A DNA stretch of 64,000 nt from Octopus vulgaris (taxonomy: Eukaryota): NCBI GenBank assembly GCA_951406725.2, contig OX597822.1:92938001-93002000 (forward strand), in the 5' to 3' direction. This document shows, piece after piece, positions 12,506-57,798 of this stretch. Positions within the stretch are counted from its first letter, which is position 1, and every line of letters begins with the position of its first letter. A program made the position numbers and the translations under genes. The notes under the pieces are model-generated. The model searched no databases. It worked only from the letters and a program-made list of their open reading frames with translations, and was not told the DNA's origin.

Positions 12506-12893
12506 GTTGAAAAAAGATTAGAGATCTATACAAATCAAATTTTTTATATATAAAAGATGGAGGTGGAAATAGTACATTTCAATTTAAGAGGGAGTTTAAT
12601 AAAAATGATTTTAAAAAAGTTATTATATAAAGGAAATATCACTGGTTTTGATGAATGTCATTGTATCAAATATCAGTAAAAATTTATAAAAATTTGAAGT
12701 AAAAACAGTTTATCTTCTGTCTAGGGGTCAAGAACATGTCTTTTGCTGACATTTGATAAGATAAGATTCATTGAAACCAGTACTATTCTTCTTTATATAA
12801 AAATTTCTTAAAATCATTTTTATTAAATCCCCTCTTAAATTGAAATGTCTTAGACTTACTTCTGTGCTATTTCTGCCTCCATATTTTATATAT
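12506..12893. mobile_element. Old foldback element in (TA)n with a decayed hammerhead-like motif in both arms
   Basis: Arms ~12546-12683 and ~12741-12893 are inverted repeats, with an unpaired tail at 12506-12545. Arm consensus atat-tTGATAA-gatga.attcatc-GAAA-ccag-TA-atat. Confidence 0.65.
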
Positions 12894-12901
12894 ATATATA
12901 T

Positions 12902-13025
12902 TAATCCCTCAACTATCGCGGGTGTTACGTTTGCAAAAACCTCCCACGATAAGTGAAAATCCGCAAAGTAGAAACAGTACTGTACTGTATATATTTAAAA
13001 TTATTTTTATAATTTGTATATATTT
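12902..13025 (+). mobile_element. Tigger/pogo-like DNA transposon terminal fragment
   Basis: TAATCCCTCAACTATCGCGGGTGTTACGTT...CGATAAGTGAAAATCCGCAAAG resembles Tigger termini; follows a TA run. Confidence 0.55.
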
Positions 13026-13657
13026 ATTTTCACAATTTATGTTCCTAACACTAGCTGAATGATAACTAAGTTATTTTACTAAATTCTTTGTTATATTTAA
13101 ATTAATTGAAAGAAACTCAGAGCATCTCAACAGAAATACAGTAATGAAATGGTTAATGTCTGTTTTGTGTAAAGCAACAAAAAGTAAACAAGAATTATAA
13201 GTAACCTGATAAGTTCTTTGTTGTGTTATTGATCAGAAGTCGAAAGTACTGCGTTGTGAGGTTGGCAAGTACTGTGTTGTGATGTTTACAGCAGTGTCCT
13301 GTTGTAGTGTTGCTGGTGGTCTGGTGTCATGTTGATTTTTGGCAATATTGTTTTGTGATTTAGGTGAGTGCTGGTAAATTTGTGTTTTGATATTGATGGA
13401 TATTGGCAGTATTGTGTGGATATAATGGTATCTCTGTTTCTGTAAAGAATTTTGTGTCTATGGCATTGAAATTATTATGTTGATGTGATGGTTGACAGCT
13501 TCATAGGGTAAGATTCAGTCCCTTGTATCATGGAGTTGACTGTCAGTGATGTTAACATTTACACGTATTATTTTAATTGTTTCATTTGAAGTTTGTCGAA
13601 AGCTTTATGCTAAAACATTTAAAACCTTTGTGACCCTTTGCTCTTCTTGTCCCACAG

Positions 13658-13888
13658 ATACAAGCAACCGTATTCAGACCTCTATCATGCGTCTTCTGGA
13701 GATGATGGAGGAGACAACTCAACAGTTGTTGGACTCCAAGAGCGTCCAACAAGAACTGATGGATACGTTAAACATGAGAGATAGTGAGGCCCAGGACAGG
13801 AGCCAGCGTCTACAAGACTTGACAGAGCAACTGAAACAAGAGATAAATGCCAGGGAGCAACTTGCATTAGAGCTGCACAAATCTCAAG
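13658..13888 (+). CDS. AKAP9: AKAP9/pericentrin-like centrosomal coiled-coil protein, internal exon (TSNRIQTSIMRLLEMMEETTQQL...AREQLALELHKSQ)
   Basis: Acceptor cccacAG, donor CAAG|GTACAG, phase 1-1. Resembles, from memory, human AKAP9 ..LLEAISETSSQLEHAKVTQTELM..RAREQLAVELSKAEG. Confidence 0.9.
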
Positions 13889-13904
13889 GTACAGTGAAGC
13901 TTTG

Positions 13905-14107
13905 TATTCTTTTTTATGAATTTGACTGTGGCCATGCTGGAGCACCACCTTTTGCCAAGCAAATCGACCCCCAGGACCCATTCTTTGTAAACCTAGTACT
14001 TATTTTATCGGTCTCTTTTGCTAAACCGATAAGTTACGGGAACATAAACACACCAGCATCAGTTGTCAAGCGGTATTGGGGGACAAACAGACACACAAAC
14101 ATATACA

Positions 14108-14159
<52 letters not shown>

Positions 14160-14320
14160 TATATCTGACAGGCTTCTTTCAGTTTCCGTCTACCAAATCC
14201 GCTCACAAGGCTTTGGTCGGCCTGAATCTATACTAGAAGACACTTGCCCAAGGTTCCATGCAGTGGGACTGAACCCAGGACTATGTGGTTGGTAAGCAAG
14301 CTACTTACCACACAGCCACT
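13905..14320 (-). mobile_element. SINE family A, antisense, immediately after exon 13658-13888
   Basis: Reverse complement of the 29258-29648 copy. Explains the spurious C-terminal half of ORF 13546-14295. Confidence 0.85.
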
Positions 14321-14532
14321 GTCAGGATTGTTAGCACGCTGGGTGAAATACTTAGCGGTATTTCGTCTGTCTTTATATTCTGAGTTCAAATTCCGCTAAG
14401 GGGCTTTGCCTTTCATCCTTTTGGGGTTGACAAATTGAGTACCAGTGAAACACTGGGGTCGATGTAATTGACTAGCCCTCTCCCGCAAAATGGCTGCCCT
14501 TGCGGAGAAATTTGAAACCATTATTATCATCA

Positions 14533-14587
<55 letters not shown>

Positions 14588-15818
14588 TATTATTGAAGGT
14601 AACCAGCTGGCAGAATCATTAGCCTGCTGGACAAAATGCTTAGTTGCATTTTGCCCATTGCTATGTTCTGAGTTCAAATTCCACCAAGGTCAACTTTGCC
14701 TTTCATCCTTTTGGGGTTGATAAATTAAGTACCAGTGAAACACTGGAGTCGATGAAATCGACTAGTCCCCTCCCCCTAAATTTCAAGCCTTGTGCCTATA
14801 ATAGAAAGGATTATTATTATTAAAAGAGTGATGATGTGTCAGAATTGGTAGGGTGGGGGTACAAAATTCCCTGTGGTATTTATTTTCATCTTTTTACATT
14901 CTAAGTTCAAATCCCAGCAAAGTCTGTTTTGTTTTTCATTCTCCCAGGGTCAAATTAATATTCAGGTATTGGAGTAGATAATGTTTTTAGGGTGCTATGG
15001 CAGATATCTGGATGTTTGTCTGGACTGAGTGTGAGATATAATTAATAAATCCGCTAAAAATAGCAGCCAAACCTTTCTCAAATTTCATAAAAACTGGATG
15101 AGTGTATCATCATCATCATCCTCGTTTTAATGTCCACTTTCTCCTGCTTGCTATAATAGAAGACACTTTCCCAGAGTGACACACACCTTGTGTATTAGTA
15201 GATTTTATAATATCCTAGTATCACCTACCAGATTAGGGTGGGGTGTAGTAGTAGTAGGGTGGGTCAAAGTTTAACAAAAAGCTTATTGTGTTAATCTAGA
15301 ATCTTGTGCTTTCTTGGGAGTTTTTGGCTCATCATTAAAATTTATCTTTGCCATGTCTTTTCTCTAAGTATTTCCATGATCATTGCTGTGATGAACTTTC
15401 TGGTCTTGTACCCCGCATCAAGCCCTTTAAATATGAGACCCACTTCTCTCAGACACATGGTTTCTCTGTTGACCTTCCTTTTATTCTTCTTGCTCCTTCC
15501 CTCGAACAGTTGCCCTCTGCAACTCCCTACAATCGCCTTGTTTTTCACTGGTTGTGATAACCAGTCCTTTAAGCTTTCTGTCAATCAACTTCTCTTGAAT
15601 CTGTAGCTCCATTCTTTCCTTTATAGTTGTCCCTTACACTACAGAGGCCTTCAAGCCTGGTTTTGCACAAGATCATCTAAAAGTTAAAATATTGTTTTGG
15701 TGTTGATGTGTAACAGTGTGAAAGTGAGCGTGTTCATTGGAACCTTGGCTGTTATTTCATTTCTACATTTTTCCTTTCCTTTCTTTTTTTCCCCCCTCTG
15801 TGCGGACACTATTTTCAG

Positions 15819-16031
15819 GATTGGTGGAAGGCTTCACGGAGGAGCGCAAGTCCCTGAGCAGTAAGCTGAAGGACCACGAGGACCGGGAGGCTGTCCTAAT
15901 CATGGAGAACGAGACATTGCGTAACCAGGTGCATGACCTGCAGCTGTCTGAGAGCGAGGTGACGTCACTGCGCAACGAAGTACAACGCCAGCAGAACATC
16001 CTCTACGACAATGCCGGACACGAACAGCAAG
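15819..16031 (+). CDS. AKAP9: AKAP9/pericentrin-like exon (GLVEGFTEERKSL...NAGHEQQ)
   Basis: Acceptor attttcAG, donor CAAG|GTTTCT, phase 1-1, 213 nt. Resembles AKAP9 GVIDGYADEK...EAGPVEQQ. Confidence 0.9.
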
Positions 16032-17059: not shown

Positions 17060-17097
<38 letters not shown>

Positions 17098-17135
17098 GAA
17101 ACAGATGTATGTGTGATAAAAAAAAAAAAAAACTG

Positions 17136-17450
17136 TCAGTTACAGTGACAAGGGTTCAAGTTGGTCCGATCACTGGGCCAAGCCGCTTGTGAAAGTAATT
17201 TGCAAGTGGCCGAGTGCTCCACACGCACCCATACCCTTAATGTAGTCCTTAGGGAGATGGAGTGTGAAACAGAATGTGACAAGGCTGGCCCTTTGAAATA
17301 CAGGTACCACTCATTTTTGCCAGCTGAGTGGATTGGAGCAACATGAAATAAAGTGTCTTGCTCAAGGACACAATGCACCACTGGGAATTGAACTCACAAT
17401 TTTCTGATTGTGAGCCGAACACCCTGACAACTAAGCAACATGTCTTCATG
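17136..17450 (-). mobile_element. tRNA-derived SINE, family D
   Basis: Minus strand: A/B-box head, GTGTCCTTGAGCAAGACACTT core, CAAAGGGCCAGCCTTGTCAC body. Similar copies at 27093-27400 and 63170-63485; partial + copies at 3551, 20060, 59803. Confidence 0.8.
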
Positions 17451-17665
17451 TGTGTATGATATAAAATGTGTTAAACAAATACATATGTTAATGTTAGGTT
17501 TGTTGTTTTAAAGGAATTTGAAGAACAGCAGAACATTTCCTAATGGTGGCAGGGATTCAACAAATACAATAAATAGTCAAATGTTACAGTTTTATATTTA
17601 AGAGATGAGGAATTATGTACACTATTTACATTTAACAGATATTTGTCCTCATCTTGTTTGTTGTT

Positions 17666-17711
17666 AACACAACGTTTCGGCTGATATACCTTCCAGCCCT
17701 CTTCAGGCGTC
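17666..17711 (-). ncRNA. Minimal type-I hammerhead ribozyme motif
   Basis: Minus strand: gacgc-CTGAAGA-g-ggctg(gaaggtatat)cagcc-GAAA-CGTT-gtgtt. Core intact, 5-bp stem II, palindromic AACGTT stem III, stem I gacgc/gtgtt. Confidence 0.75.
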
Positions 17712-17865
17712 TTGGGGAAATTTCGAACCTGGGTCCTCATTCCTAAGGTATTTTTCGATGTTATTATTATTATTATTATTCAGGACACTGCCTGGAATCG
17801 AACTTGGAATCTTCGGTTCTTGGGGTTAGTAGCCTGCACTCTTAACCACTACACCATACGCCCAC

Positions 17866-17935
17866 GGGCATGTGGTGTAGTGGTTAAGAGCATGGGCTGC
17901 TAACCTCAAAATTCATGTTCGGTTCCAGGCAGTGA

Positions 17936-17940
<5 letters not shown>
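17866..17940 (+). promoter_or_regulatory. tRNA-derived Pol III internal promoter head, mirrored on the minus strand at ~17780-17863
   Basis: A-box TGGTGTAGTGG (17873-17883), B-box GTTCGGTTCC (17917-17926; GTTCGATTCC in the mirror arm), anticodon-like loop CTGCTAA/CTACTAA. Confidence 0.7.
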
Positions 17941-17982
<42 letters not shown>

Positions 17983-18030
17983 TTGAAAAATACCTTAGGA
18001 ATGAGGATCCAGGTTTGAAATTTCCCCAAA

Positions 18031-18078
18031 GACACCTGATGAAGGCTGGAGGGTATATCTCAGCTGAAACGTTGTGTT
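18031..18078 (+). ncRNA. Minimal type-I hammerhead ribozyme motif, sense to the host pre-mRNA
   Basis: gacac-CTGATGA-a-ggctg(gagggtatatct)cagct-GAAA-CGTT-gtgtt. Confidence 0.7.
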
Positions 18079-18248
18079 AACAACAAACAAGATGAGGACA
18101 AATATCCGTCAAATGTAAATAGTCAAATGTATCGTATAACACTAGTTTCAACCCAAACTTCAGCTTCTGTTTGTTGACTTTTTCAACTCTGGTTGGATGA
18201 ACCATCAACTGAAACTTGAAGCCTCCTCCAGTCAAAACACAACTTTAA

Positions 18249-18462
18249 CCCTTTCGTTACCAACCCGGCTGAAACCGGCTCTGAGTACAAATGTTTTATT
18301 TTCATAAGTTTTGAATAAAAATCTTCCACCAAACCTTAGTCACAATTGATGTTCCTAACACTAGCTTAATGATAACCAAGTTATTTTACTAAATACTTTG
18401 GTATATTTAAAATAATTGAAAGAAATGCAGAGCATCTCAAAATAAATACAGTAACGAAAGGG
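18249..18462 (+). mobile_element. piggyBac-type MITE, family 1
   Basis: TTAA on both sides, TIR CCCTTTCGTTAC/GTAACGAAAGGG. Confidence 0.85.
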
Positions 18463-18468
18463 TTAAAT

Positions 18469-18499
<31 letters not shown>

Positions 18500-18881: not shown

Positions 18882-19617
18882 TAGTAAATATTTTGATCCC
18901 CTCACTTTTCCATTCTGTTATCATTTACAAGACATCTGTTGGATACGAGGGTATAGTAGTGGTTGTATGGTTGGTCAAAGGTTAACATACCCATACAGGG
19001 ATAATCTAGAAATCTCCCCCTCTTTTATTTTGTTTTTGATATTTTCATTTCATTTGTAAGCTGCACCCCTGATAATCTAAAGATGAAGAAGAAAAAAAAA
19101 AAAGATATTTATGCCCATGTAGTTGTGAGTAGATGTAAACACTTTCTTGGCCCTCAAACCCTTAACACTGATGGTGTAATGCTATTTTGTTTTTTTTTTG
19201 CCTCCCCGCTTCTCCCTAAAGGGAAAATTTTTTTTTAACATATTTATTTGTTTTTGGAAGTGACACTGTCCTTCCTCCTTCCAACTGCGGTCCAATTAAA
19301 CCATTATTAATTATTATGATTGATATTATATTAAACATGGAACTGTTATTATTATCATCATCATCATCATTATTAATGTTATGTTGGAATAGAATGTTAT
19401 TTTAATATGTAATTATGTTGTATTTGGTCTAATAACCCCAGCAAGGTTATACTCAGAGTAGGGCTGTACTCAGAGGTAACTGATTCTCACTGGGTTGGTC
19501 TGACTCCTATTGGGATAAATAAGCTGTAGTGGGGTTACTTAAATCCTGTATTAATGAATATGAATCTAGAAGTAACTGGTTCAGCTGGTTTCTTTGAGTT
19601 AACCCAGGGCTAATTAA

Positions 19618-19826
19618 CCCTTTTGTTACTGTATTTCTGTTGAGATGCTCTGTGTTTCTTTCAATTAATTTAAATATAACAAAGAATTTAGTAAAATAAC
19701 TTAGTTAATATTAAGCTAGTGTTAGGAGCATAAATTGTGACTAAGGTTTGGTGGAAGATTTTAATTCAAACAAGAAATGTGTACTCAGAGCCAGAGGCGA
19801 TTTCAGCTGCGTTGGTAATGAAAGGG
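19618..19826 (-). mobile_element. piggyBac-type MITE, family 1, inverted relative to 18249-18462
   Basis: TTAA flanks, CCCTTT...AAAGGG ends, interior is the reverse complement of the 18249 copy. Partial copy at ~13030-13155. Confidence 0.85.
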
Positions 19827-20722
19827 TTAAATTTTATGGGTATACTAACTGAATTCACAGCAGACTGACTTGTTAGATTTCCTAACTAAGGCAGTGATTC
19901 TCAACCAGTGTCCGAATGATCTTTGGGGGTCCATATAAGAATTTACTGTTAAAATTTAGGTGCAATAAATTGGTTATAATTCTAAGGGTCCCTAAAGTAA
20001 GGGCAAATTGATTGACTGGCTGACTCAGTAGGTTTACCCATTCAGCTCAGTGAAGGCTCGCCTCCTAGTGGTTAGAATATGACGACATGATTACAAAGGT
20101 GTAGGGTTCAATTCTTGAACTGGGTGTTGTGTTGTGTCCTTGAGCAAGGCACTTCCTTTTATAGTGTTCCTCTCAACTCAGCTGCAAATGAGCACCACTT
20201 GACTGCCTGTGCAACCATCTTACCATCCAGCTGTCATATCCTTGATGTTTTGCTGGGGTTAAGGGCACGAGGGCTGAGAAAGTTTCTATGTCTACTCGCA
20301 ACTACATGGGCATACAAATACTTATCAATAAAAGCCTGGCACTTACAACCAAGTCCTCCTCACTTGCGAGTGATAGCTGTGGTCGCTCCTCTCCTTTCGA
20401 TAGCTCAACATTTGCCGAGTTTACTTGCTCAACTCTATGTTCACACTTCGGTCTGGCTCTCTTGTGAAGCCAAGGAAACTGCTGGATTTACCTGGTGACC
20501 CTTAAATCGCAATCAGTGGTGATGTCAAGGGACTGACTCTCACCAGGTATATCAGCAGAACCTGAGACTAACTGATATTTTCTTTGTTCATTTACCAGGC
20601 TATGCTCTGTAACTTTTGTAACGAGGTTATAGATAAAAAAATAACTATACTTTCTATAATTTCCTTATTTATCATATGGTAATGATGATGATAGTAAAAT
20701 ACAATTATTATTAAATAATTAC

Positions 20723-36600: not shown

Positions 36601-37539
36601 TTAGGTGATGGTGTTTAAATTAATTAATTACAACATATAGATTCTTTATTTCTTTCTCTCTCTCTCTTTACATAGCTTCTTTCTCTCTCTCTCTCTCTTT
36701 ACATGCTGGTGTTGGTGTTGTTTGTGATGATACTTGTTGCTGTTTAATCTCCTGACATGATCCTTGATCTAGCAGACCGATGATCAAAGGCATTCCAGTT
36801 GTGACCATCACTTTCTTTGTTTTTGATAAACTAAAAAGATTGTTTTTCAGACATAGCATATCTAGAACTACATTATCCAATGTGTCCTTCTTTTAGTAAG
36901 ATATTAGGGTGAACATTGAGAAAGATTTGGTTACTATTTCCAGCAGATTGAGTAACCTCATAATCTGTTTGCCTGTCCATCTCCCTTTATTTGTCTATAT
37001 TTCTCTCTGTATGTCTGTCCCTTGTTCTTTATTTTTCTGTCTGTCTCTGTCTGTCTGTTTGTCTCTCTTTGTCAGTCTCTCTCTCTTACTTCTTCTCTTC
37101 TCTCTCCTTCTCTCTCAATGACACTCCTACTGAAGTTAGCAGTGGTAGCACCGTTTTAATTAATATTAGACTTGATTAGAAAATATTTTATAGTTAATCA
37201 ACGTTACCTGTATGCTGCGGGGTGATGCAGGGTGGGGGATTAAAATTACAACATATAAATTCTTTCTTTCTTTCTCTCTCTCTCTAATCTCTCTCTCACC
37301 CTCCTTCTTGAGTATTTAATCTATCTTCTCTCTTGTATATTTTACTATCTTTGTCATGTATTTCACTCTTCCTCTATCCATTTATCCCTCTCTCTTTCTG
37401 TTCATCTCTCTCTCTGTCTCACACACACACATTATATATATATATCATCATCATATATATACCAAAGTAAGCACATAAATGTGTATCACGGTGTGGAAAA
37501 AATAGTACTCGATTACTGGAGGTAGAGTAATATCCATTA

Positions 37540-37888
37540 CTAGCAGTATCGCCTGGCGTTGCTCGGGTTTGTAAGGGAAATAACTATAAAGCATTTTTAG
37601 AGAGTTATAGCCAAAAAATGATGGTAAATTTTTTTTTTTAGTTAAAAAGGTCGAGTTGCGTCCCCTAGACAGTCTGTGGTTTGTGTTTCTGATTCTCGAC
37701 CCCATGTCGAATTTATCGATTTTTTCAGAACTGGGGGAACTTTTCAAAATTTTTGCTGCGTTAGTTTTGAATTATGACATTGGGCTATGTGTGTGTCAAG
37801 TTTAATCAGAATCGGTTGAAAGCCGTGGTCAGGGTGAAGGTACAACCTAACAGACACACAGACAAACTGCCGTTTATATATAGAGAGA
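37540..37888 (-). mobile_element. Non-autonomous Helitron
   Basis: Minus strand: 5' TCTCTCTATATATAAA, subterminal hairpin CCCGAGCAACGCCAGG, 3' CTAG. Inserted at A|T with no TSD; empty site seen at 38111-38132. Confidence 0.9.
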
Positions 37889-37944
37889 TTATTATGAAAG
37901 CTGCAAAAAAAATATATATACATACATGTGTGTGTGCGTGCGTG

Positions 37945-38423: not shown

Positions 38424-38455
<32 letters not shown>

Positions 38456-38461
<6 letters not shown>

Positions 38462-38758
38462 CTGTAAAATAATATGTGACAATTATTTGTAGCTAAGATA
38501 AAACTCTGATTTTCGGATGCTGAGGTGGAAATCCACACCACCATCTCTTCGGTTATTTGGTCATCTGAAAAACGCTTTTTTATTTTCAGATGGCCAGATA
38601 ATCGAAGAGATGGTGGTGTGGATTTCCACCTTGGCATCTGAAACTCAGAGTTTTATCTTGGCTACTGAATAATTGTCACATATTATTTTACAGATAAATT
38701 TCCTCTATTTACATAATATTGAGGTCTCTTTCTTTCTTTTGTTATCTTACCAATTTTA

Positions 38759-38762
<4 letters not shown>
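38456..38762. mobile_element. Foldback element in (TA)n with a hammerhead-like motif in each arm and a 3' tail
   Basis: Arms ~38456-38572 and ~38584-38699, tail to 38762. agataa-(C/T)CGAAGA-gatg...catc(c/t)-GAAA-CTCAGAG-TT-ttatct. Internally deleted copy at 41582-41745. Confidence 0.75.
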
Positions 38763-38801
<39 letters not shown>

Positions 38802-39200
38802 TTAGAGATTGGGAAACCAACCAACTAAGCAATAGTACCTACCTAATATACTGCTGGTACTGTACCCAATTATTCATACCCATGTGCTGGTTATTGCGTG
38901 GCAATTCCACAATTGAGTGTTATATATGGGCGGGAGTAAAAAAGTGGTTTACCCTTAATTTATACAGCAAATAAGAAAATGGAGGGGATACAAAGATGAC
39001 ATACATCAGCCGGTAGACATTTTAGTATGTCTATTTATTCCAAAGTAATAGAATGTATTAGAAGAATACATACACATGTAATACCCATTTGTTGCACTTG
39101 TACTAATATTATAGAAAAGAGCAAATGATCAGATTGCCAGTAGGTGCTAGTTCCTTACAGCCGTTTCTGCCCTATATATGTGTGTGTGTATGTATGTATA

Positions 39201-39238
<38 letters not shown>

Positions 39239-39621
39239 CTAGCAGTATCGCCCGGCGTTGCTCGGGTTTGTAAGGGAAATAACTATAAAGCATTTTTAGA
39301 GAGTTATAGCCAAAAATAGCAAAAAAATGGGAAAAAAAGGATGGTAAATTTTTTTTGATAGTTAAAAAGGTCGAGTTGCGTCCCCTAGACCATCTGTGGT
39401 TTGTGTTTCTGATTGTCGACCCCATGTCGAATTTATCGATCTTTTTCAGAACTGGGGGAACTTTTCAAAATTTTCGCTGCGTTAGTTTTGAATTATGACA
39501 TTGGGCTATGTGTGTGTCAAGTTTCATCAGAATCGGTTGAAAGCCGTGGTCAGAGTGAGGGTACAACCAAACAGACACACAGAAACACACACAGACAAAC
39601 TGCCGTTTATATATAGAGAGA
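39239..39621 (-). mobile_element. Non-autonomous Helitron, second near-identical copy
   Basis: Same termini as 37540-37888; inserted in a (TA)n run. Confidence 0.9.
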
Positions 39622-39915
39622 TATATATATATATATATATATTTTTTTCTCTCTGTCTGACTCTCTTTTTCTCTTTTGTTCTCTTCCCCTTTTCTCTCTC
39701 CCCCTCTCCAATATTCATATTCGTATTTCAGCTTCTTAAATTTCCTGTTTTAACATTAAAAAAAAATTTGCTTTTAGCCGATAACTTTACAGGTTGATGT
39801 TGTTGCTGTTGTTGTTGTTGTTGTTGTTGTTGATGTATTATGTTGTTGTTGTTGTTGTTATATAATGCCATTGTTGTTATTAATATCATTAACACTATGC
39901 CATTGTTATTGTTGC

Positions 39916-39969
<54 letters not shown>

Positions 39970-41508
39970 CCAACCCATCTTGGAAGTTAAATAACGATGA
40001 TAATAATAATATTTGCTTTTGTTTTTTTTTTTACTTTATTTTTTGTCGAGTGATTTGTATTTCTTTTTTGGGGTGTTTTTCTTGCCATATTTTATTTGTG
40101 CTTAATGGCTGGATTGCTTCCATAATGCTTTATAACTTTAATTGCTTTATTTCAATTATTATTATTATTGTTTTTGTTATGGATCACTTTAATGCTTTTC
40201 CTATGGATTGCTTCTGTGCTTTTTTAAAAATCTTTCTTGATGGATGTCATCTCTGTTGCTTTCATAATGGATGGCTTTTTTTTTTTTTTCGTTTTATTTC
40301 AACAGCATTACTCTGTAATAGTTTAATGTCAATAGTATTTAATGTAGAGAACATGGAAAGATAAATAAATAAAATAAATTAAAATAGAAATAATTATGCT
40401 AGGAACGAAAAAAAAAAAGAAAGAAAATGAATGAAAAATATTTAGTCATTTAATTGGCAAGTATGGGAGACAACTCTGCATGTGTTTTAACCTTATTACC
40501 AGCTGATCTTCTCAGCAAACCATATGATTCTCTCTACACAAGTGGATGGTATTGCCCCGCTGGGGCAGTGGAAGGTTCCAAGGGGGCATTGAAGAAAAGG
40601 GGGCGATAATGGGGTAGTGATTTGTGTAAAAAGTGGGGTGATAAGTGGAGCGATAATGAGCTTCATGTAAAAACAACAAGATAATGGGTTCATTAGGTTT
40701 TATTTGTGAAATACAGTTGCTTTGAATTTGCTTCAGAAAGGGGTCTGTGTTTGTGATGGTTTGTTGGGGGTGGGGGCAGTAGGAACATAGTCCGAGTGTC
40801 AAGGGGGTGGCAACCCGAAAAATTTTGGGAACCACTGCTCTACACTGTAAACGTATAAGAATCGTTTCTGACTCAGGGATGCCATCTGCATTGGAAACGA
40901 TACTTAAATTAGCATTAACATGTTTCATGTAGTGTACATTAAGAAAACCTACTTAGAAGTATTTGTATGTTAGATTTCTATATAGTTTGGGTTGTTGTGT
41001 AAGGAACTCCTCTCATGCAGATTGTTTTTAAAATGAGCTTCTTTGAAAATGGATTGCTGTGTAAAGGGTTATACATGTTCTAATGGGACGCCTTCTAACA
41101 AATTGCTTTTCTTATGGATCACTTAGCAAATTGCTCTCTCTCTTTCTTTCTTTGTTTCACTTACTCTCTTGGTATATATTGGCTGAAATGCACAAAAATA
41201 GAAAGCAATTATAAAAATAATGCATATCATGTAAAAAGCACCTGTGCTGGCACCACGTAAAAAGCACTCTGTACACCCTGTAAAGTGGTTGGCACCAGGA
41301 AGGGGCATCCAGCTGTAGAAACCATTCCAAAGCTGGCAGTTGGTGCCTGCTACAATGCTTCAGCCGGCCAGCTCTTGTCAAACCATCAAACCCATGACAT
41401 CATGGAAGAACAGACATTAAATGATGATGATGACAATATTTTATAATACATACTTATATATAGCTATACACACACACAAATTCTAATCTGTGTATATATA
41501 AAACATTT

Positions 41509-41555
<47 letters not shown>

Positions 41556-44454
41556 CTGTAAATGTAATCATCATCATCATCATATGTGACAATTATTCGG
41601 TAGCTATGATAAAACTCCGAGTTTCGGATGCCGAGGTGGAAATCCACGCCGCCATCAGACACATATTACATTTACAGATAAATTCCTCTATTTACATAAT
41701 ATCGAGGTCTCTTTCATTCTTTTGTTGTCTTACCATTTTTATCAATACACACACACACACATACACAATATTTATAGCTCCTGTCTATCTAACTCTCTCT
41801 CATGTGGCAGTGGCCTCCGTGGGGCCATAGCAGAAGTTACTTGACTAAAGTGCCATGCTGTGGGACTGAACCTGAAACTGTTTGGTTGCAAAGTGAATTT
41901 CTTTGTTACACAGTAATATAATGCACACACACACACACACACTCTCATACACACAATTTATTCCCATGTGCACATGTATAAGTATTCACATTGTTATTGC
42001 TGTAGGAAGTTCATATTGACATCATTATATCGGTTGTGCCATTTGCTTTTCCACTTTTTGGAAACATCAGAACATTGCTTCTAGAATCTACCATTCTGCT
42101 ATATAAGTTGTAAGATCTTTCAGCTCTCTGCAAATATAGACACATTTAGGCTCTGTACATATCTACAGGTGGTGGTGGTGATGGTGATGGAGGCCTATAC
42201 ACAGCAAACCCACCTACATTCATACAACCTTGCCATGTGGAGTAGGTGCTTATTCAAATTCTGCTAAATTTATTAAAGAATTCTTTCCTCAAAAACTGGC
42301 TTTTATTTACTAAATGACAGAAAAACAAGGACTCATCTTGTGAGGAACAACCACCAAAATGAAATGACATCAGTTGAGCTATCAATTTGTTTCATTTGTA
42401 CATTTATTTAGTTTTCTATTTTAATTAATTTATTTATTGGTTTATTTCAAAATATCTTAGAAAATGCTTGGTGCTTTAAGCTAGCTATGGCAGAGACAAT
42501 TTTAATATTTTTTTTTAAACTAAAAGAATTTATTGTTGTTATCATTTTTAGAATGATTTAAAAGTGGAGATATTAATAATATGGAGATGGCCTGTGGCTA
42601 ATTGGATGCTGTGTCAGTTGTCATCAGAGTATAAGATTTATTTCCTAAAGAGAAACTATTACAACACCTGAAATGGTTAAACATTAAGAGGAGTGCTCCA
42701 GTAATCTTCTCTTCTTGGAACATGGTCTTGGAAGGGTTTTTGTCCCCCTGTTTGATGCTGTTCGTTAAGGCTTGACAGTTAACCTGAAGGAAAGGAAAAT
42801 ACCCAAGTAAAAAAAAAAACCCCAATATTTTATGCCCATACTGTGAAAATAATCATGATAATAACGATAATCCTTTCTGCCATAGACACAAGACCTGAAA
42901 TTCAGGGGAGTGGGTGGGGGTGGCTAGTCGATTACAACAACCTCAGTACTCAACTGGTACTTAATTTATTGACCCTGAAAGGATGAAAGGTAAAGTCAAC
43001 CTTGGCAGAATTTGAACTCAGGACATAATAACAATCGTTTGCCTGGAATGCTAATGATTCTGCCACTCACTGCCTTAATAATAATTATGATAATACTAAT
43101 AATCCTTTCTACTCTAGGCACAAGGCATGAAATTTGAGGGAGGGCGGATAATTGATTACATTGACCCTAGTGTTTTACTGGTACATAATTTATTCTTTTC
43201 TACTCTAGGCACAATGCCTGAAATTTTTGGGGAGGGGGCCAGTCAATTAGATTGATCCCAGTATGCAACTGGTACTTAGTGTATCAACTCCGAAAGGATG
43301 AAAGGCAAAGTTGACCATGGCGGAATTTGAACTCAGAATGTAAAGACAGACGAAATGCTGCTAAGCATTTTACTCCACATGCTAATGGTTCTGCTAGCTT
43401 TTTGCCATATTAATAGTCATCATAATCTTAACATAGGCACAAGTCAGGAGTAAGGGTCAGGAAATTAAATCAACATCAGCACTTGACTCGTATTCTATTC
43501 TTTCAACCCTGAAAGGATGGAAGTGAAGAAAGTTGACCTGAGTGGGGTTTGAACTCAGAATATGGAGTATTGGAATTAAATGCTAATACACTGCCCTCAT
43601 TTAAACTAAATTAGAATGAGTTGGGAGCATTTTATCTGATGCTCTGATACTTTTTAGTGGAACCCTAGAAATTTCAGGTTTCATTTTTCAATTCTAATGG
43701 GTGAAATACTCACACACACACACGCGCGTGTGTGTATGTATTCATAAATAGTTGTTTTACTTATTTTAGTCACTGGACTGTGGCCATGCTGGAGCACTGC
43801 CTTAAAGGGTTTTAGTTGAGCAATTTGACCCCAGCACTTATGGCTATTTTTTTTTCCTCCCAAAGTCTGGTAGTTTTCTGTCAGTTTCTTTTGTGGAACT
43901 GCTATGTTACTAGGATGTAAACAAACCAACACTGGTTGTCAGGGTGGTGGTGGGGGACAAGCACACTCACACACATATGCTTAAACGCAACAGGCTTCCA
44001 CACAGCATTCTGTCTGCAAAATTAGCTTGCAAGGCTTTGGACTGGTCTGTATGGGGCTAGAATAGAAGACCGTCACCCAAGGTACCCCACAGTGGGGATG
44101 AACCTGAAACTATTTGACTGCAAAGTAATCTCACCCCCCCCCCTTCACCCCAAATGTAATTCTTCAGAACTACTTAAGCAGCATTCTTTTACGTTAAAGA
44201 TTTTGATTAAGTCTTTGATGTCATTCCACTGTTAAGGTTGTTTAAAGTGTAACACTTAAAGAACAAAACAAAAGAACCTTATGACAAGCATAATAAAAAC
44301 AACAACTATCATAATAATAATAATATTTCTTTAATTGAGAAATTGGTAATTTTTTGAAAAAAAAAATATATAATAATAATAATAATATAAATAATGTAAT
44401 ACAAAATATAAATGATGTAATAAATAAATAAATAATGATAATAATAATAGAATA

Positions 44455-44500
<46 letters not shown>

Positions 44501-44690
44501 GTAATTTATGCTCATTTAGTGGTTCCAGATAACTGTATATTTAGGAAGACGATTGAACTCTATTTGACAATGGCATGTTTCTGTAACCCTACGTGTCTCT
44601 CCATTATCTCTCTGACCGTTTGTCTCTCTATATCTATCTGTCTATCTATCTTTCACTTTATTACTTTGCATGGCATTGTTCGACGTCTAG

Positions 44691-44735
44691 ATGTGGCCAT
44701 GGTCACAGATAACGAGGAATGGTTGGAAAAGCAAG
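44691..44735 (+). CDS. 45-nt symmetric microexon of the AKAP9-like gene (DVAMVTDNEEWLEKQ)
   Basis: Acceptor cgtctAG after a long pyrimidine-rich tract, donor CAAG|GTTAGT, phase 1-1, no stop, fits between exons 16031 and 50016. Internal GCCATGG Kozak ATG. Confidence 0.65.
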
Positions 44736-45339
44736 GTTAGTCTTGATATATCTATCTATATATCTATATGACATTTCTGTTCAACTAACACTAACAGTAT
44801 TATTTTTATTATAATTATTTATATTATTATTAACATACTAATTCTTTCTGCTATAGGCATAATACCTGAAACTTGGGATGGGGATGAGGGCTAGTTGACT
44901 AAGTCGGTGTTTGACTGGTTCTGATTTTTGGCACCCGGCAGATGCCAGGACCCCTGGACTGGTGGTACATAAAAAGCACCATCCGAATCGTGGCCGATGC
45001 CAGTGCCGCCTCGACTGGCCTCCGTGCTGGTGGCACGTAAAATGCACCAATCCGACCGTGGCCATTGCCAGCCTTGCCTGGCACCTGTGCAGGTGGCACG
45101 TAAAAAGTACCCACTACACTCACGGAGTGGTTGGCGTTAGGAAGGGCATCCTGCTGTAGAAACATTGCCAGATAAGACTGGAGCCTGGTGCAGCCTTCTG
45201 GCTTCCCAGATCCCCAGTCGAACCGTCCAACCCATGCTAGCATGGAGAACGGATGTTAAACGATGATGATGATGATGATGAAGGGCAAAGTTGGCCTCAA
45301 TTGAATCTGAAGTTGCTGTGTAAAACTGGAAGGAATGCT

Positions 45340-45761
45340 AGAAAGTTACTGTTTTAAAATCTCACAACGAGAGATATTCAGCAACAGTACTTTGGAGTAA
45401 AGATTGTTTGCCAACATAACATGGCAGTCCTGGTTTAGGACTAATGTTGCTGTAATTTATCCCCAGGAAACATTGTCTCCAGCTGGCTGTACGGCACGAT
45501 CTGTGTCCTTATATTTTCGAACAAGGGAATCTAGCACCCCCACTCAGCTCAAAACAATATCTGTGTATTGCAATTTCTGGGTTATTTCCCTCCATCAGCA
45601 TAGAATAATTGTTCGGCAATACACAGATATTGTCTTGAGCTGAGTGGGGGTGCTATATTCCCTTGTCTAAAAATATAAGGACACAGATGTCTCCTGGGGC
45701 TAAATTACAGCATCATTCGTCCTAAACCAGGACTGCCATGTTATGTTGGCAAACAATCTTT
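45340..45761 (-). mobile_element. Foldback element with a central hammerhead-like motif, tail and 15-bp TSD, inserted in a family B SINE
   Basis: Arms 45396-45571 and 45616-45764. Direct repeat ACTGGAAGGA(A/G)TGCT at 45325-45339 and 45762-45776. Minus strand 45561-45603: ctatg-CTGATGG-a-ggg(aaataa)ccc-a-GAAA-TTGCAA-TA-cacag. Confidence 0.75.
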
Positions 45762-46199
45762 ACTGGAAGGAGTGCTGTTAAGTGTTTTGTCTGGTGTGCA
45801 AACGATTCTGCCACCTTGTTGCCATTTTTAATTATTCTGTTTATTATAGGTGCCAGACTTGAAATTTTGTTTCGAGGGTGGGCTGGTTGATTACATTGAC
45901 CTCCACCCCACCACTGGTGTTTACCTTGTTTATTTTATCGACCATGAAAAGATAACAGTCAAAGTTAACTTCAGTAGTGTTTGAACTCAGAATGTAAAAC
46001 CAGAAAAAATGGCACTAAGCACTTTTTCTGGCATGCCAACGAGTTTGCGAGCTCACCACCTTCTATTTAGACTAATTGTTTCTAATTTAAGCACAAGGCA
46101 AGCAATTTTGGCGGTGGTAGTGGTGGTGGTGGTGGGGGGGGGGAATCAATATCATTCCCCTACCCCACTCAAATATTTGACTTGTACTTTATTCTATAA

Positions 46200-51563: not shown

Positions 51564-51960
51564 ATAAAAATAAAAGGGTAAAATTAATTAATTAATTAAT
51601 TAATCAATCAATCAATCAATTGATGAATTAATAATTAATAATTTTACCAAGTAGTTTGGTACATTAAAATGACCTTTTTAGGTAAAATTATACAAATATT
51701 CTATAATTATAAACATAATTATAATCAGGGGTCAGCTAAGTACTTCACCACGCACCGAATTTAGAAATAGGAGTTAAATGCCTTTTCTACTATCATAAAG
51801 ATCTCCCAGACAGTAACACACTTTTTGTGTGCTACTGTCTTGGAGATCTTTATGGTAGTAGAAAAGGCAATTAATTCCTTTTTCTAATTTCGGTGTGTGG
51901 TGAAGTAATTAACTGACCCTTGATTATAATTATGTTTATAATTATAGAATATTTGTATAT
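51562..51960. mobile_element. Foldback element in (TA)n with unpaired left tail
   Basis: ~130-bp inverted arms ~51690-51821 and ~51826-51958, centre cacactttttgtgtg. Confidence 0.75.
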
Positions 51961-51979
51961 ATATATATATATGTATATA

Positions 51980-52188
51980 TTTTTTACATACAAAATTTAA
52001 AGGACTGACCACTAAAAATGGACGGTCAATATGCTAGTTATAGATGTCAAAATCGCTAGCATATAGCATCCACTTTTAGTGGTCAATCCTTTAAATTTTG
52101 TATGTAAAAACTATTTTAATCTTCGGATTTTTTTAATATGCTAGGCCACTGGTTTTAATTGATTAATATCAATTTCTACCCTTATTCA

Positions 52189-52195
<7 letters not shown>
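51980..52195. mobile_element. Small foldback element in (TA)n with unpaired right tail
   Basis: TTTTTACATACAAAATTTAAAGGA..GACCACTAAAA.TGGA and its inverted copy ending TATGTAAAAA at ~52109. Confidence 0.7.
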
Positions 52196-52230
<35 letters not shown>

Positions 52231-52243
52231 GTTGTTCATTTAG

Positions 52244-52363: not shown

Positions 52364-53109
52364 GTTAGTGGATATTATGCTTATTAAAGGTTTTTTTTTT
52401 AATATTATATCTGTCTATCAATACACACACACACTCACCCATTCCTACATGGTAAAAATCTACAACAAGAATACAGGGAACTTGCCATAGAAAGTGGAAA
52501 ATCCAATGTTTCAGACAGAATATTCCAGGCCAACCTGTCATCCCCATCTTCAACACAACGAATCATTTCATCACTCACTTATCAATGTGCAGCATCTTCA
52601 AACACCAAAATCTACATACTCAAAGAAACAGAAAGAACCCTGCTTCAGATTTAGACTTGGTATCATATCACCGACAGGTTCAAATGGATGTTTTTTCCCT
52701 CTATTCCTACACCTCATCTTATTTCATCAGACCCTTTCTTACCCTTCAGCTCCCTTTTTATCTCAAGTTTTTCCTTTTCATTCTCACTTTCACATACTTC
52801 TCCTCATTCTATTCCCCTTTCTTTCTACTTCTTTCACTCTGTTTCACTCTCTCCTACTACTTCCTATCCGTATATGAAGCTTCTGTGGTCCTATGTCCCT
52901 CATCAGTTGCAGCCAATCTTTCTACCTTTGAGAATGTAAAATTCTGCTGTCTCCTATCAATGAAGGACTCTGTCTGAAATGTTAGATTTTTCACTTTCTA
53001 CAACAAATTCACTATACTGTGTTGATTTCAGCAAATAATACAAATCTCACTAATGTAGACCAGTACCAGTCACTTTGTAGTATATTTGATCATTCATATA
53101 CCATATATA

Positions 53110-53577
53110 CAAGGTTATTCAAAAAGAATGAACTGATTTCATTACGCAATATTTTAATAAGGAAAAGCAATAAAAAATTCCAGCTAAATCACAATTATTT
53201 ACTCACAGTCAACTTTTATTTCCTGTCTTACAGGTGTTCAATGTGGCCACCACCTGCATCATGGGCAACATCAATGCGATAAGAGAATTCCTCCCAGGGG
53301 CGTATCAGCATATCACAATCCGCTAAGTTGATTGCTGTTGTTATTCAATGTTTAACGTCATTGAGGTTAGTGGGTATGTTGATACGCCTCTGGGAGGAAT
53401 TCTCTTATCACATTGATGTTGACTGTGCTGCAGGTGGTGGCCACATTGAACACTTATAAAACAGGAAATAAAAGTTGATTGTGAGTAAATAATTGTGACT
53501 TAACTGGACTTTTCTATTGCTTTTCCTTATTAAAATATTGCGTAATGAAATCAGTTCATTCTTTTTGAATAACCTTG
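53110..53577. mobile_element. Tc1/mariner MITE formed from two inverted copies of a transposon 3' end
   Basis: TA flanks, ~200-bp TIRs starting CAAGGTTATTCAAAAAGAATG. 53376-53459 encodes MLIRLWEEFSYHIDVDCAAGGGHIEHL*. Confidence 0.85.
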
Positions 53578-55291
53578 TATATATATATCTGTGGTTCCTT
53601 TGGTATGTTTGTTCCCAAACACCATTTATTTTAGTGCTGTTGACACTGCTGAATTGAATGGTACTGCCCAGGTGTCGAAACCATAATGATATCCATGAGG
53701 CAGCTGATGAAGGAGGTATGTTGGATTGTTGGTATGGCTGTTTTTTTATATGTGGATATATATATAAATATATATAAATATATATATGATGATTTGGTGA
53801 TCAACAGTGACATTGGTTATAGGTTTTCAATGATGCTGGTCACAAGTTCACTCCGTTTATGATGATGACTGCAACTTGGCTGGAATAATTCCAGGAAATT
53901 ATTAAGATTATCTTTTGTTCAAATGCAATGGCTTCCTTGTATTTTTGTTATGCATGTGTACATCTTTTTCTGATATACATTTGTGAAAGATGTATCTCTC
54001 TCTCTCTCTTTCTCTCTCTCTCTATTGGCACTGAGGCAAACTACTATTAAAGACATGTAACTTCTACCAAATTTGTTGAGTGCCATTTTCTTTTGTTTGT
54101 CCACTGACACACACACTCTCTCACTCTCTCTAACTCTCTCTCTCTCTTTTACATAGATGTCTCTCTCTCTCTCTCTCTCTTTCTCATAAATATAGACATA
54201 TATATATGTATATATATATACATATGTAAAACCTTTTATTTTTATTATCTTTTCTCTTCTTCTATGGAATCTTTCTACTGGTCTTACTATTCTCCCTGTT
54301 TCCTTTTTGGGGATCACTGCTCTGTTAGATGGTGAGTTTTTATGGGTTTTCTATTGCTCCCACCTTCTCATTTCTGACAACACCCATCTCCCTTCATCTT
54401 TTCCTTCCAATAGTGCCCCACCACCACCACCACACCCTTTCATATCCTACCCGACCACCCAACCGGTTTTAACTCTAATAACTCTTCTACATGTCTCACA
54501 TAGAATACATTGTTGTTGCTCCTGTTGTTGTTGATATAACTGCTGTTTTGTTAAACCTTGTTTTTCTCTCTCCTGGCTTTCTTTCTCTGCAAAAAATCCT
54601 TATTTGTTGTAACTCCAGCCCCAACATCCAACTTTCCTTATCTCCTTCACACACTTACCTCTCTCTCTCTCACGTCTCTCTCCTCTTTCTCTTTGCCCTT
54701 GTTGCTAATAAACGAATTATTATTATTGTTATTGTTCTGACCCTCATTTTCACATCCCCAGTACTGCCACTACCACTACTACTACCCACACAATTATCCT
54801 TAATATTACTACAACAGAACCATTGCCTCTGCTACTGCCGTTTGTGTCTATGACCACCACCACCACCTCTAAAATGTTCCCCTTACTACCACAACCACCA
54901 CAACTGGTACTGTCTCCATCACTACAGTCATCACTACCACCATTACCACAACTGCCACTACCACTGCTGCTCCACCACCATTACTACTGCCACCCCCACC
55001 CCCAGACTATCACCACAACTACCCTAACCCTTACCTCCATAAATGTTATTGTCTCTATGACGACGGCCACCACACTGCACTCACCACCAAAATTATCCCT
55101 CCACCGTCATGACCATCACTCTATTGTCTCTATTCCCCTAACCCTAACCCAACCACTATCACTATCACAACTACCATCACCATTCTTAATACTGCTATCG
55201 TGACTACCACCACCACTACCACCACACCCACCTACCCACCCACTCAAAAAACAAGATGGCTCACTAAATCGTGTGTTAACCCCATTGCCAG

Positions 55292-55477
55292 GTGGAGGAA
55301 CTGTCTGACCAGTTGGAAAGCCGCATCTCTACCCAGAGTCAGATGTTGATGAAGAAAGAACAGCTTGAACGAGACATTCAAGACAAAGATTTGAATGCGT
55401 TGGAACTGAAGCAGTTGGTGGAACAACTAGAACAAGAGTTGGACGAGAAAGTTACCAAAGAGAAGCAACAGGAACAG
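55292..55477 (+). CDS. AKAP9: AKAP9/pericentrin-like exon (VEELSDQLESR...KEKQQEQ)
   Basis: Acceptor ttgccAG, donor CAG|GTAAGA, phase 0-0, coiled-coil composition. Confidence 0.9.
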
Positions 55478-56079
55478 GTAAGAGTCTTTGACTATTCATG
55501 GTGTGTGAGGAATGCTTATTGATACACAGAGGAGAGATAAAGATTGGTAAATAGTACAAGTAAGAATCTTTCTTGTGTCCATAGAAGATTCATGGTTTTG
55601 TTTTTCTTCTGTTAATCTCAAGAGAAAATAGCACCATTTTGCAGTCAACCGTTACTGCACAGGAACCAAATATGTTTGTGCAGCTTCTCTTGAGACTTGG
55701 GGAAACAAGTTAACTTGTTCTGATGGTGCATTACTTGTTTGAACTCTCCACGTTTCATATCATGTGGTAGTGTGCTCATTTTCGTTTTACTGACCAATAG
55801 AAAGAGATTGTGAGAACTTATTTGCATATGATTAGCATATTACAGGAGCCAGTTGGGGTGGTGGGGCTGGCATTGACCACATTTGTATGGTGCTGGGTTT
55901 TGTAACCTGGACACAGTCAGAAAAGACGTGCAAGAGCTTGGTAGTCATAGGAGTATGGTTCCTTAGACAAATTCTGAATATGTTCTGTGACAAACAAAAA
56001 CATATAAAAATAATAAATAAATAAATCACTTCCCTATATCATAAAGTTTTTGGTAATTTTGATGATGCTGTTCTTTCAG

Positions 56080-56280
56080 AGAATTCTCCAGCTTGAACAG
56101 CAGATCACCAAACTACAGGAAATCAACGAAGAATTAAGTGAAGAGATGAAGTTGTCCACAACAGAAGACAAAAAAATCATTGGTAGTCTGGAGACTCAGC
56201 TGGATGATCAGCGACTGGTTTATGAGAAGAAAGCCTTAACGCTGGATGAAGAACTGAAGAAAGCCCGCAGAATTGAAGAG
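56080..56280 (+). CDS. AKAP9: AKAP9/pericentrin-like exon (RILQLEQQITK...KKARRIEE)
   Basis: Acceptor ttctttcAG, donor GAG|GTTCGG, phase 0-0. Confidence 0.88.
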
Positions 56281-57117
56281 GTTCGGCATACATAGATTTT
56301 TTTATTGAGTAAGGGGGTGGGGGTGGGAAAATCTATTAATTCAAGAAAATATTTTGAATTTTTGATCTGGGACCTCTACATCTGTAATGCCCAGATCATC
56401 ATCGTTTAACGTCTACCTTCCATGCTAGCATGGGTGGGACGGTTTGACAAGAGCCAGCCAGGCAGAAGCCTGCACCAGACTTCAGTGACTGTTTCGGCAG
56501 GATTTTTACAGCTGGATCCCCTTCCTAATGCCAACCACTCAGCAGAGTGGACTTAGTGCTTCTTACATGGCACAAGCACAGGTGAGGTCAGTAGAGCTTT
56601 TTATGTGGTACAAGCACAGGTGAGGTCAGTTTTGGCAAGGTTTTTACAGCTGGATGCCCTTCTGGACACCATCCACTTTACAGTGTGGACTGGGTGCTTT
56701 TAAGTGGCACCTGCACTGACAAGGTCACCAAATACTTGCACGGCAAGGCAAGGCAAAAAAAAAAAATCATTCAGGGAGGGGATGAGGCATTGGAGGAGGT
56801 GATCTTGTGTTAGATGATGAAAGATTATAGTGAGAGAGATAGAGGTGTCTTGCTGTAGAGGAAGTACAAGGTTACCAGATATTATAATTAAACTTCTAGT
56901 TTATAATATCAGTGCTTGGTAGTGGTTTTGAAAGGACATTAATCCTTTGTTGCTATATTTCTGTTGAAATTCTCTGACTTTATTTTAATTCATTCTTAAA
57001 ATAATGAAGAATTTGGTAAAATAAGTTTGTCAGTTTTAAACTGGTGTTTGGAACACAAATCAGCACAATATTTCAATGGAAAGTTTAAAATTAGATCACT
57101 TTAAAACAGGGAATTTA

Positions 57118-57577
57118 CATCATTTACATTATTTACATTTGATGGATATTTGTCATCTTGTTTGTTGTTAACACAACGTTTCAGCTGGTATATCCTCCAG
57201 TCTTCATCAGGTGTCTTGGGGGAAATTTCGAACCTGGGTTCTCATTCCTAATGTATTTTTCGATGTTATTATTATTATTCAGATTCACTGCTTGGAATCA
57301 AACTTGGAATCTTGGGGTTAGTAGCCTGCGCTCTTAACCACTACGCCATATACCCATGGGCATATGCAGTGACCTGAATAATATTAATAATAATAATAAT
57401 AACATCGAAAAATACCTTAGGAATGAGAACCCAGGTTTGAAATTTTCCCAAGACACCTGATGAAGGCTGGAGGGTATACCAGCCGAAACATGTAAACAAC
57501 AAACAAGATGAGGAGAAATATCTGTGAAATGTAAATAATGTACATAACTCCTCATCTCTTAAATGTAGAACTGTATT
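57118..57577. mobile_element. Second copy of the tRNA-head/hammerhead foldback element, nested in a piggyBac-type MITE
   Basis: Direct repeat AGGGAATTTA at 57108-57117 and 57578-57587. Hammerhead motifs at 57170-57215 (minus) and 57452-57489 (plus, 3' side damaged). tRNA head mostly deleted in the right arm. Confidence 0.8.
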
Positions 57578-57798
57578 AGGGAATTTATTTCCCAGAATGA
57601 AGGGGCAGTCTTGGTGGTTTGGTGTGAAAAGGGTTAATTATGTGCCTTTACTTTCTGAGTTCAAATGCTGATGAAGTCTTCTTCGCCTTTTATCCTTTCT
57701 GAGGATCAATATAATAAAGTACCAGTCAAATACTGGAGCTGATTTGATCTTATTATATCACCATCATCATTTAACATCTGCTTTTCCCTGTTTCCATG

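Follow-up and report, generated by a model that had tools for sequence, protein, structure and literature searches.

What do several short, one-tailed palindromes with hammerhead ribozyme motifs represent: mobile elements of a kind of their own, or the traces that a known type of retroelement leaves when it inserts? The question is raised by 64,000 nucleotides of the Octopus vulgaris genome (NCBI GenBank assembly GCA_951406725.2, contig OX597822.1, positions 92,938,001 to 93,002,000 of the forward strand; "the window" below is this whole stretch), AT-rich animal DNA that is dense in repeats and has many microsatellites. Six loci in four families are concerned: A (12506-12893), B (B1, 17585-18115; B2, 57118-57577), C (C1, 38456-38762; C2, 41574-41745) and D (45340-45761). 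A preliminary description had read them as a distinct class of retroelement without open reading frames (ORFs). We interpret them instead as the insertion stumps of at least four families of Penelope-like retroelements (PLEs), built anew at each insertion, and give this reading a probability of roughly 85%. The pattern is mostly already known: the families are new, and the layout is the published footprint of endonuclease-positive (EN+) PLEs. The parts of the six loci, including the target-site duplications (TSDs), are as follows.

12506-12543, minus strand: one-sided tail of A, ~38-40 nt, adjoining (TA)n (self-alignment, folding, joints)
12544-12741, minus strand: tail-bearing arm of A, 5′-truncated at 12741 (self-alignment)
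12635-12674, minus strand: decayed hammerhead of A with 4 defects (relaxed descriptor)
12742-12893, plus strand: inverted arm of A, no tail, decayed hammerhead at 12748-12787 (self-alignment, relaxed descriptor)
17570-17584, unstranded: left TSD of B1, 15 bp, exact match to 18116-18130 (flank comparison)
17585-17866, minus strand: tail-bearing arm of B1, intact minimal hammerhead at 17666-17711, tail at ~17585-17620 (alignment, motif scan)
17865-18115, plus strand: inverted, tail-less arm of B1, whose head starts at the 5′ point shared with the other arm, minimal hammerhead at 18031-18078, intact (alignment, motif scan)
18116-18130, unstranded: right TSD of B1, whose first 8 bases also extend the element sequence (flank comparison)
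38456-38575, minus strand: inverted arm of C1 in (TA)n, hammerhead-like motif at 38497-38557, where the core has U4C, stem II is long and one additional base precedes GAAA (self-alignment, descriptor, folding)
38576-38762, plus strand: tail-bearing arm of C1, motif at 38597-38657 with a more decayed core, tail at 38698-38762 (self-alignment, folding)
41574-41745, unstranded: C2, inverted-arm piece 41574-41656 (from stem II, no first core box) and arm end with tail 41657-41745 (self-BLAST)
45325-45339, unstranded: left TSD of D, 14 of 15 positions shared with 45762-45776 (flank comparison)
45340-45617, minus strand: tail-bearing arm of D, tail at 45340-45398 (self-alignment, folding)
45560-45604, minus strand: single hammerhead-like motif of D, whose core has G at position 9 and a purine ahead of GAAA and whose extended stem I contains an internal loop (descriptor, contigs)
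45616-45761, plus strand: inverted arm of D, starting 6 nt before the predicted cut site, lacking tail and core, 27 nt deleted internally (self-alignment)
45762-45776, unstranded: right TSD of D (flank comparison)
57108-57117, unstranded: left TSD of B2, 10 bp, exact match to 57578-57587 (flank comparison)
57118-57358, minus strand: inverted arm of B2 with tRNA-like head, hammerhead at 57170-57215 with 1 defect (alignment, motif scan)
57355-57577, plus strand: tail-bearing arm of B2, head mostly deleted, hammerhead at 57457 whose cleavage triplet is lost by a 3-nt deletion (alignment)
57578-57587, unstranded: right TSD of B2 (flank comparison)

At five of the six loci (A, B1, B2, C1 and D) one sequence is paired head to head with a truncated, inverted copy of itself. 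The arms are 86-94% identical and a 3′ extension is found on one of them only, of ~40 (A), 44 (B1), 28 (B2), 63 (C1) and 59 nt (D). The preliminary description had called every locus an asymmetric palindrome, which self-alignment bears out for these five; C2 is not a foldback, since self-alignment yields only a TA run there. It consists of an inverted-arm piece and a short tail-bearing piece, oriented as in the other loci with almost no overlap. The TSDs of B1 (15 bp, exact), B2 (10 bp, exact) and D (14 of 15) uphold the claim that three insertions carry duplications of 10-15 bp; among 1334 random flank pairs, one shared at least 10 exact bases and none at least 15. A and C1 sit within (TA)n. 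At the tail-less end the element sequence is carried on into the target, by 8 nt in B1 and 3 nt in D, and short palindromes are present at the junctions of A and B. Deletions specific to one arm (27 nt in D, 45472-45498 compared with the right arm; 17 nt in A, 12849-12865 compared with the left arm) concern bases that other copies have. As had been stated, the four families are dissimilar: no similarity between them was found among the self-BLAST matches listed. The inverted truncated copy, the one-sided tail and the variable TSD or (TA)n target are features of EN+ PLE insertions, and this anatomy, together with the TSDs, supports the proposed retroelement origin and Penelope-like affinity over miniature inverted-repeat transposable elements (MITEs). 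The fixed short TSDs and symmetric terminal inverted repeats of DNA transposons were not seen; the ends are asymmetric, the TSDs vary and so does the internal structure.

Other copies of two families bear on how the foldbacks arise. Contigs from four public runs were placed at 80% likeness on D and on A; for family C the evidence comes from the window copies. A recruited 774-1080 contigs per run with 114 joints, of which 15 were seen. Tail and arm end are joined in other copies at 12542-12545 to 12889-12895, with a loose end at 12894, and the family continues upstream of the window copy's truncation: a loose end lies behind 12741 in 23-45 contigs per run. D recruited 6070-9213 contigs per run, at a summed depth of about one million compared with 40-90 per contig in three runs (6-12 in run X5). 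Family D therefore has very many copies, summed contig depth being no copy number. All 15 joints seen of the 185 found for D were different, and D also runs on upstream of the window copy's junction in other copies. The depth of the D junction zone is less than a thousandth of the arms' peak, with the proviso that contigs fitting both arms may be assigned to the left arm. Summed over contigs, depth in the hammerhead zone is about one tenth of that over the 3′ part, which suggests that many copies end before the hammerhead is reached. Of the outer loose ends listed (1591 further rows lie beyond them), one cluster is at 45339, with 103-114 contigs per run; the other, ~52 nt away, is at 45391/45392, with 37-44 contigs per site. 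Because junctions vary from copy to copy in A and D, the palindrome was probably built at insertion and is not the mobile unit. The junctions of C1 and C2 differ as well, and most likely two copies, each truncated independently, are combined into the foldback during insertion.

The hammerheads are best preserved in family B. A strict scan of the window found three motifs, every one in B, and a relaxed descriptor that counts defects gave three matches with 0-1 defects, again all in B, compared with 0.08 expected per 64 kb from 12 shuffles. The B core matches the C3-G8 box, GAAA and NUH pattern, with CG as stem III. The window copies of A, C and D have 3-4 defects, and taken alone these motifs are not above chance, because shuffles give ~8 and ~34 equally defective matches per 64 kb. 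For A, the majority letters of other copies change this picture. At 12640, 12643, 12649, 12657, 12662 and 12663 (61-96% of depth) all six shift the left motif toward a hammerhead, and the resulting motif is free of defects, with a five-pair stem II closed by G-C, GAAA, a CCGG stem III (61-74% majority), a permitted cleavage triplet and a five-pair stem I. In the right arm, two letters are restored in other copies: 12772, at 0-76% depending on the run, and 12783, at 75-100%. Positions 3 and 8 (12669 and 12664) have no variant at or above 20% in the four runs, so the core is U3-A8 family-wide. The majority sequence of family A is thus a type I U3-A8 hammerhead motif.

Families C and D depart from this pattern. 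The published minimal core (C3-G8 or U3-A8, GAAA, NUH) is matched by B in the window copies and by A at family level, and is not matched in C, where U4C is found in both C1 arms, or in D, which has G at position 9. U4C is also known as a natural change in a viroid, where the hammerhead is weakened but stays viable (PMC3088659; here and below, statements on the literature refer to the available parts of the sources cited). In D, two majority letters (54-90%) make stem III a perfect six-base palindrome, as it also is in the window copy; this gives no evidence of covariation, because both changes are of the CpG type. Neither the G at position 9 nor the purine before GAAA has a corrective variant at or above 20% in the four runs, and the motif may be a variant or a dead hammerhead. 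Since stems and GAAA are retained, C and D may nonetheless function as variants. A palindromic stem III is common to all four families: CG in B, CCGG in A by majority, 6 nt in D and 7 nt with an unpaired centre in C. A rewired hammerhead for C and D was considered and dropped, the parts being in ordinary type I order. The preliminary description had placed a minimal hammerhead, reading outward from the centre, in each element and had asked for conservation of the consensus core. The orientation is confirmed. Presence stands for B in the window and for A by majority letters, and fails for the right arm of B2, which lost its triplet, and for the D inverted arm and C2, which have no full core. 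"Minimal" suits A and B, not C with its long stem II or D with its extended stem I and internal loop. Conservation is likewise seen in the defect-free majority of A, while D combines a palindromic stem III with a non-canonical core. As a separate observation, other D copies have a GC-rich word upstream of 45617, ~20-35 nt ahead of the hammerhead core, which to us resembles a CTCF-type site.

Searches with general models added little. Rfam gave no hammerhead for the window among 150 of 195 matches listed, and neither hammerhead nor tRNA for B1 alone and B2 alone; the matches listed were to microsatellite and hairpin microRNA models only. A scan of metagenome contigs for the family C motif gave two loci in near-identical unrelated DNA with no further similarity, and these were rejected as chance. 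Viral contigs scanned for the family B motif gave no match. The runs listed for 38440-45830 include no RNA dataset and are uninformative about expression.

Family B differs from the others in its centre, which is formed by a tRNA-like head (17783-17940 and 57284-57358); B1 and B2 are both joined at the first bases of this head. The tail-bearing arm of B1 has an A box (17846-17856), a B box (17795-17803) and (AAT)n. Its box pair at the usual spacing is one of two such pairs in the window, and two further arms retain the A box; the box patterns used are the typical ones. A relaxed ARAGORN call on a B arm was discarded as unspecific, with 178 and 31 calls in the window, 31 being obtained at the setting that detects one B arm. 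The main arm of B1 also has a 52-codon ATG frame that starts at 17740, passes through the hammerhead and is open to the tail end. Such a frame was matched in 15 of 2000 shuffles, the arm being one of five tested. The main arm of B2 retains the frame with two stops, and no ATG frame reaches the tail end in A, C or D.

A phmmer search with the B frame returned 66 matches, mostly translations of related copies, and B copies occur in proteins assigned to Octopus sinensis and O. bimaculoides. Open frames are over-represented among these matches because gene callers picked them. Together with the protein P0002, the 67 B-like translations end at query residues 41-44 (15 of 67) or 50-52 (35 of 67). 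B-like copies thus have two ends, and two preferred outer ends are a property of both D and B-like copies. A B-related family (P0005-P0011, P0051 and others) consists of head-to-tail repeats of 40-43 codons, ~129 nt, running from a point just ahead of the hammerhead to the tail end; by eye, two of these tandem proteins start with an apparent inverted copy. P0002 itself, a gene model annotated in Octopus sinensis as a cysteine-rich membrane protein, takes its first 34 residues from family B, probably by mis-annotation or exonisation of a B repeat.

These data are consistent with a model in which the PLE protein, with its reverse transcriptase (RT) and GIY-YIG domains, would cut an AT-rich target on both strands, the two cuts lying 10-15 bp apart (inferred from Frangieh et al., 2024, PMC11167929). 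Each cut end would prime reverse transcription at one of two start sites within the RNA, the tail end or the tail-less end. Both copies would then be extended toward the 5′ end of the RNA, stopping early in A, C and D and at the RNA start in B, and would be joined 5′ to 5′, probably via a few complementary bases. Continuation of the element into the target, as in B1 and D, is expected from priming by short complementarity. The hammerhead would belong to the parent RNA, where it may act as a dimer or with the help of protein, and would be a passenger in the stump. There the ribozyme is probably silent, because motifs on opposite strands cannot dimerise in one transcript and the mirror arm is predicted to pair with the core: in folds of whole elements, paired core bases number 4 of 7 in D and 6-7 of 7 in the other three families.

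Several observations weigh against PLE stumps. No RT or GIY-YIG domain was found among the 88 window frames of at least 90 aa or among the 66 protein matches to the B frame, and coding elements sharing arm and tail, which the preliminary description had proposed to look for, did not come to light in either set. The 31 downstream parts of B-like proteins share nothing behind the tail beyond the repeat itself (P0003 and P0043, repetitive chance matches, were excluded from this comparison). At 63 nt in C and 52-59 nt in D, the tails exceed the published 30-40 bp, and the cores of C and D deviate from the published consensus. For A and D the case draws on 15 joints seen per family and on depth, which is not copy number. 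Finally, a fixed unit is conceivable for B, because B1 and B2 share one junction point. Formal PLE membership stops short of a link to RT/GIY-YIG; we are highly confident that these repeats work as PLE insertions do.

The best of the alternatives keeps the foldbacks as insertion products and changes their parents into short non-coding RNAs, similar to retrozymes or short interspersed nuclear elements (SINEs), that borrow PLE enzymes. B would then be a tRNA-headed element transcribed by RNA polymerase III (Pol III), and D a very abundant non-coding one. We regard this as possible, at rather less than even odds, and it may suit some families. The spaced A and B boxes, the junction of both B insertions at the 5′ start of the head, the B-like proteins with no shared continuation behind the tail and the fact that in A, C and D no ATG frame extends as far as the tail end all speak for it. 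There are precedents: Pol III SINEs with hammerheads are known in schistosomes (PMC6765202), and retrozymes have been proposed as PLE derivatives (bioRxiv 10.64898/2026.07.22.740005). Against it stand the 52-codon B1 frame, which is placed like the ORF starts of Pen2a and of PAc (Poseidon of Anolis carolinensis), and the tRNA evidence, with no Rfam match in B1 or B2 and an unspecific ARAGORN result. Its most specific form, in which B is a PLE-mobilised, Pol III-driven unit copied full-length twice per insertion and D a high-copy non-coding passenger with a cleaving odd core, seems doubtful. Neither a PLE repeat with a tRNA/Pol III head nor a cleaving core of the D type was found in the literature searched, and both supplements and repeat databases may already contain these families or the cores seen in C and D. 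If either part were true, a SINE-like passenger would be added to the PLE class, or the natural hammerhead core would be widened.

A different origin of the inverted arm, by self-priming on an antisense template or by snap-back of the complementary DNA in place of priming at two target ends, was proposed in PMC3846280 from palindromes at inverted junctions, and the short palindromes at the A and B junctions fit it. We consider it unlikely, since the arms have two separate, fixed end points, in agreement with the pair of RT start sites that was measured in PAc, and since target bases extend the element at the tail-less end of B1 and D.

That the asymmetric palindrome is itself mobile, as a new class of ORF-less ribozyme retroelement, was the central proposal of the preliminary description. 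The recurrence of one design in four sequence-unrelated families and the common junction of B1 and B2 argue for it. It was not sustained and is now very improbable. Junctions vary in A, C and D, which largely refutes it for A and D; the D junction zone has less than a thousandth of the arms' peak depth, although contigs fitting both arms may be counted on the left one; cores are decayed or absent in many arms and predicted to be buried; and the design is the published PLE footprint (PMC8557442, PMC3846280, PMC4209133). MITEs or foldback DNA transposons with hammerheads by chance are hardly credible: the window copies of A, C and D do lie within the chance range of defects, but for A, B and D this reading is refuted. 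The TSDs measure 10, 15 and 15 bp, tails are one-sided, junctions vary, majority letters shift toward the hammerhead consensus, and the symmetric foldbacks used as controls from the same window (53103-53584 and 51689-51959) lack a tail and a long TSD and contain no motif with fewer than 5 defects.

The control at 53103-53584 is 482 bp long, with arms ~91-93% alike and TA on both ends, and is presumably a TA-targeting MITE. The other lies next to a further symmetric foldback (51981-52110) by (TA)n; the pair, with no hammerhead and no TSD, could be MITEs or tail-less stumps. Other repeats adjoin the loci described here. Immediately left of A, 12033-12500 holds two inverted copies of an abundant SINE-like repeat flanking a microsatellite. 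Inverted repeats of ~230 bp (18241-18469 and 19611-19834), 1.1 kb apart and with TTAA-CCC ends, we take to resemble a piggyBac-like non-autonomous element. C1 is flanked by two young copies of a 350-380-bp repeat within TA runs (37538-37890 and 39237-39620), in our view similar to a Helitron/Helentron.

Compared with known systems, the closest match is to EN+ PLE insertions, which have an inverted 5′-truncated copy, a one-sided tail of 30-40 bp and a bias for (TA)n (Craig et al., 2021, PMC8557442), TSDs of 8-10 bp, palindromes at head-to-head junctions, an ORF start within the pseudo-long terminal repeat, and a tail (Arkhipova et al., 2013, PMC3846280). The window elements share the truncated inverted copy, the single tail, the junction palindromes and, in B, an ORF start in the repeat, at the place corresponding to that of Pen2a (PMC3846280). 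TSDs are also alike, the published ones being ~8-10 bp or unreadable in (TA)n. The differences are window arms of less than 300 nt with no ORF body, tails of 52-63 nt in C and D, and TSDs of up to 15 bp. One-tailed palindromes with long TSDs should accordingly be filed as Penelope-like stumps and not as MITEs.

Metazoan PLEs carry minimal type I hammerheads on opposite strands, 100-700 bp apart, and also have longer palindromic stems III (Cervera and de la Pena, 2014, PMC4209133). B agrees with their consensus, including the extra base after A9, the G10.1-C11.1 pair and the CG stem III. A does not have the extra base and shares the U3-A8 swap, which is found in schistosome PLEs (PMC4209133) and in other natural hammerheads (PMC3088659). 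The U4C and extra base of C, and the G9, purine and extended stem I of D, are absent from the part of the alignment compared (PMC4209133). Non-LTR (long terminal repeat) retrozymes and the hammerhead SINEs of schistosomes are similarly short, hammerhead-bearing and possibly non-coding, with a Pol III promoter before the hammerhead as in B (bioRxiv 10.64898/2026.07.22.740005, PMC6765202). Those elements, however, are head-to-tail tandems, whereas the window copies are head to head with a PLE-type tail; tandems of ~43 codons are seen in a B-related family among the protein matches.

PAc offers the closest mechanistic parallel. It is a full coding element tested in vitro, while the window elements are described from their sequence, and no tRNA-like head such as that of B is mentioned for it in the available part of its description (PMC11167929). 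The purified PAc protein acts on both strands of AT-rich DNA, cutting and extending each, two internal RT starts bound the tail, and the hammerhead is dispensable in vitro (Frangieh et al., 2024, PMC11167929). The hammerhead at the ORF start (in PAc, and here in B), the two ends bounding the tail and the AT-rich targets are common to both. Reverse transcription that is primed at both ends of the target and begins at two sites has so far been demonstrated in vitro for this one lizard element, and the octopus stumps provide inexpensive genomic support for it.

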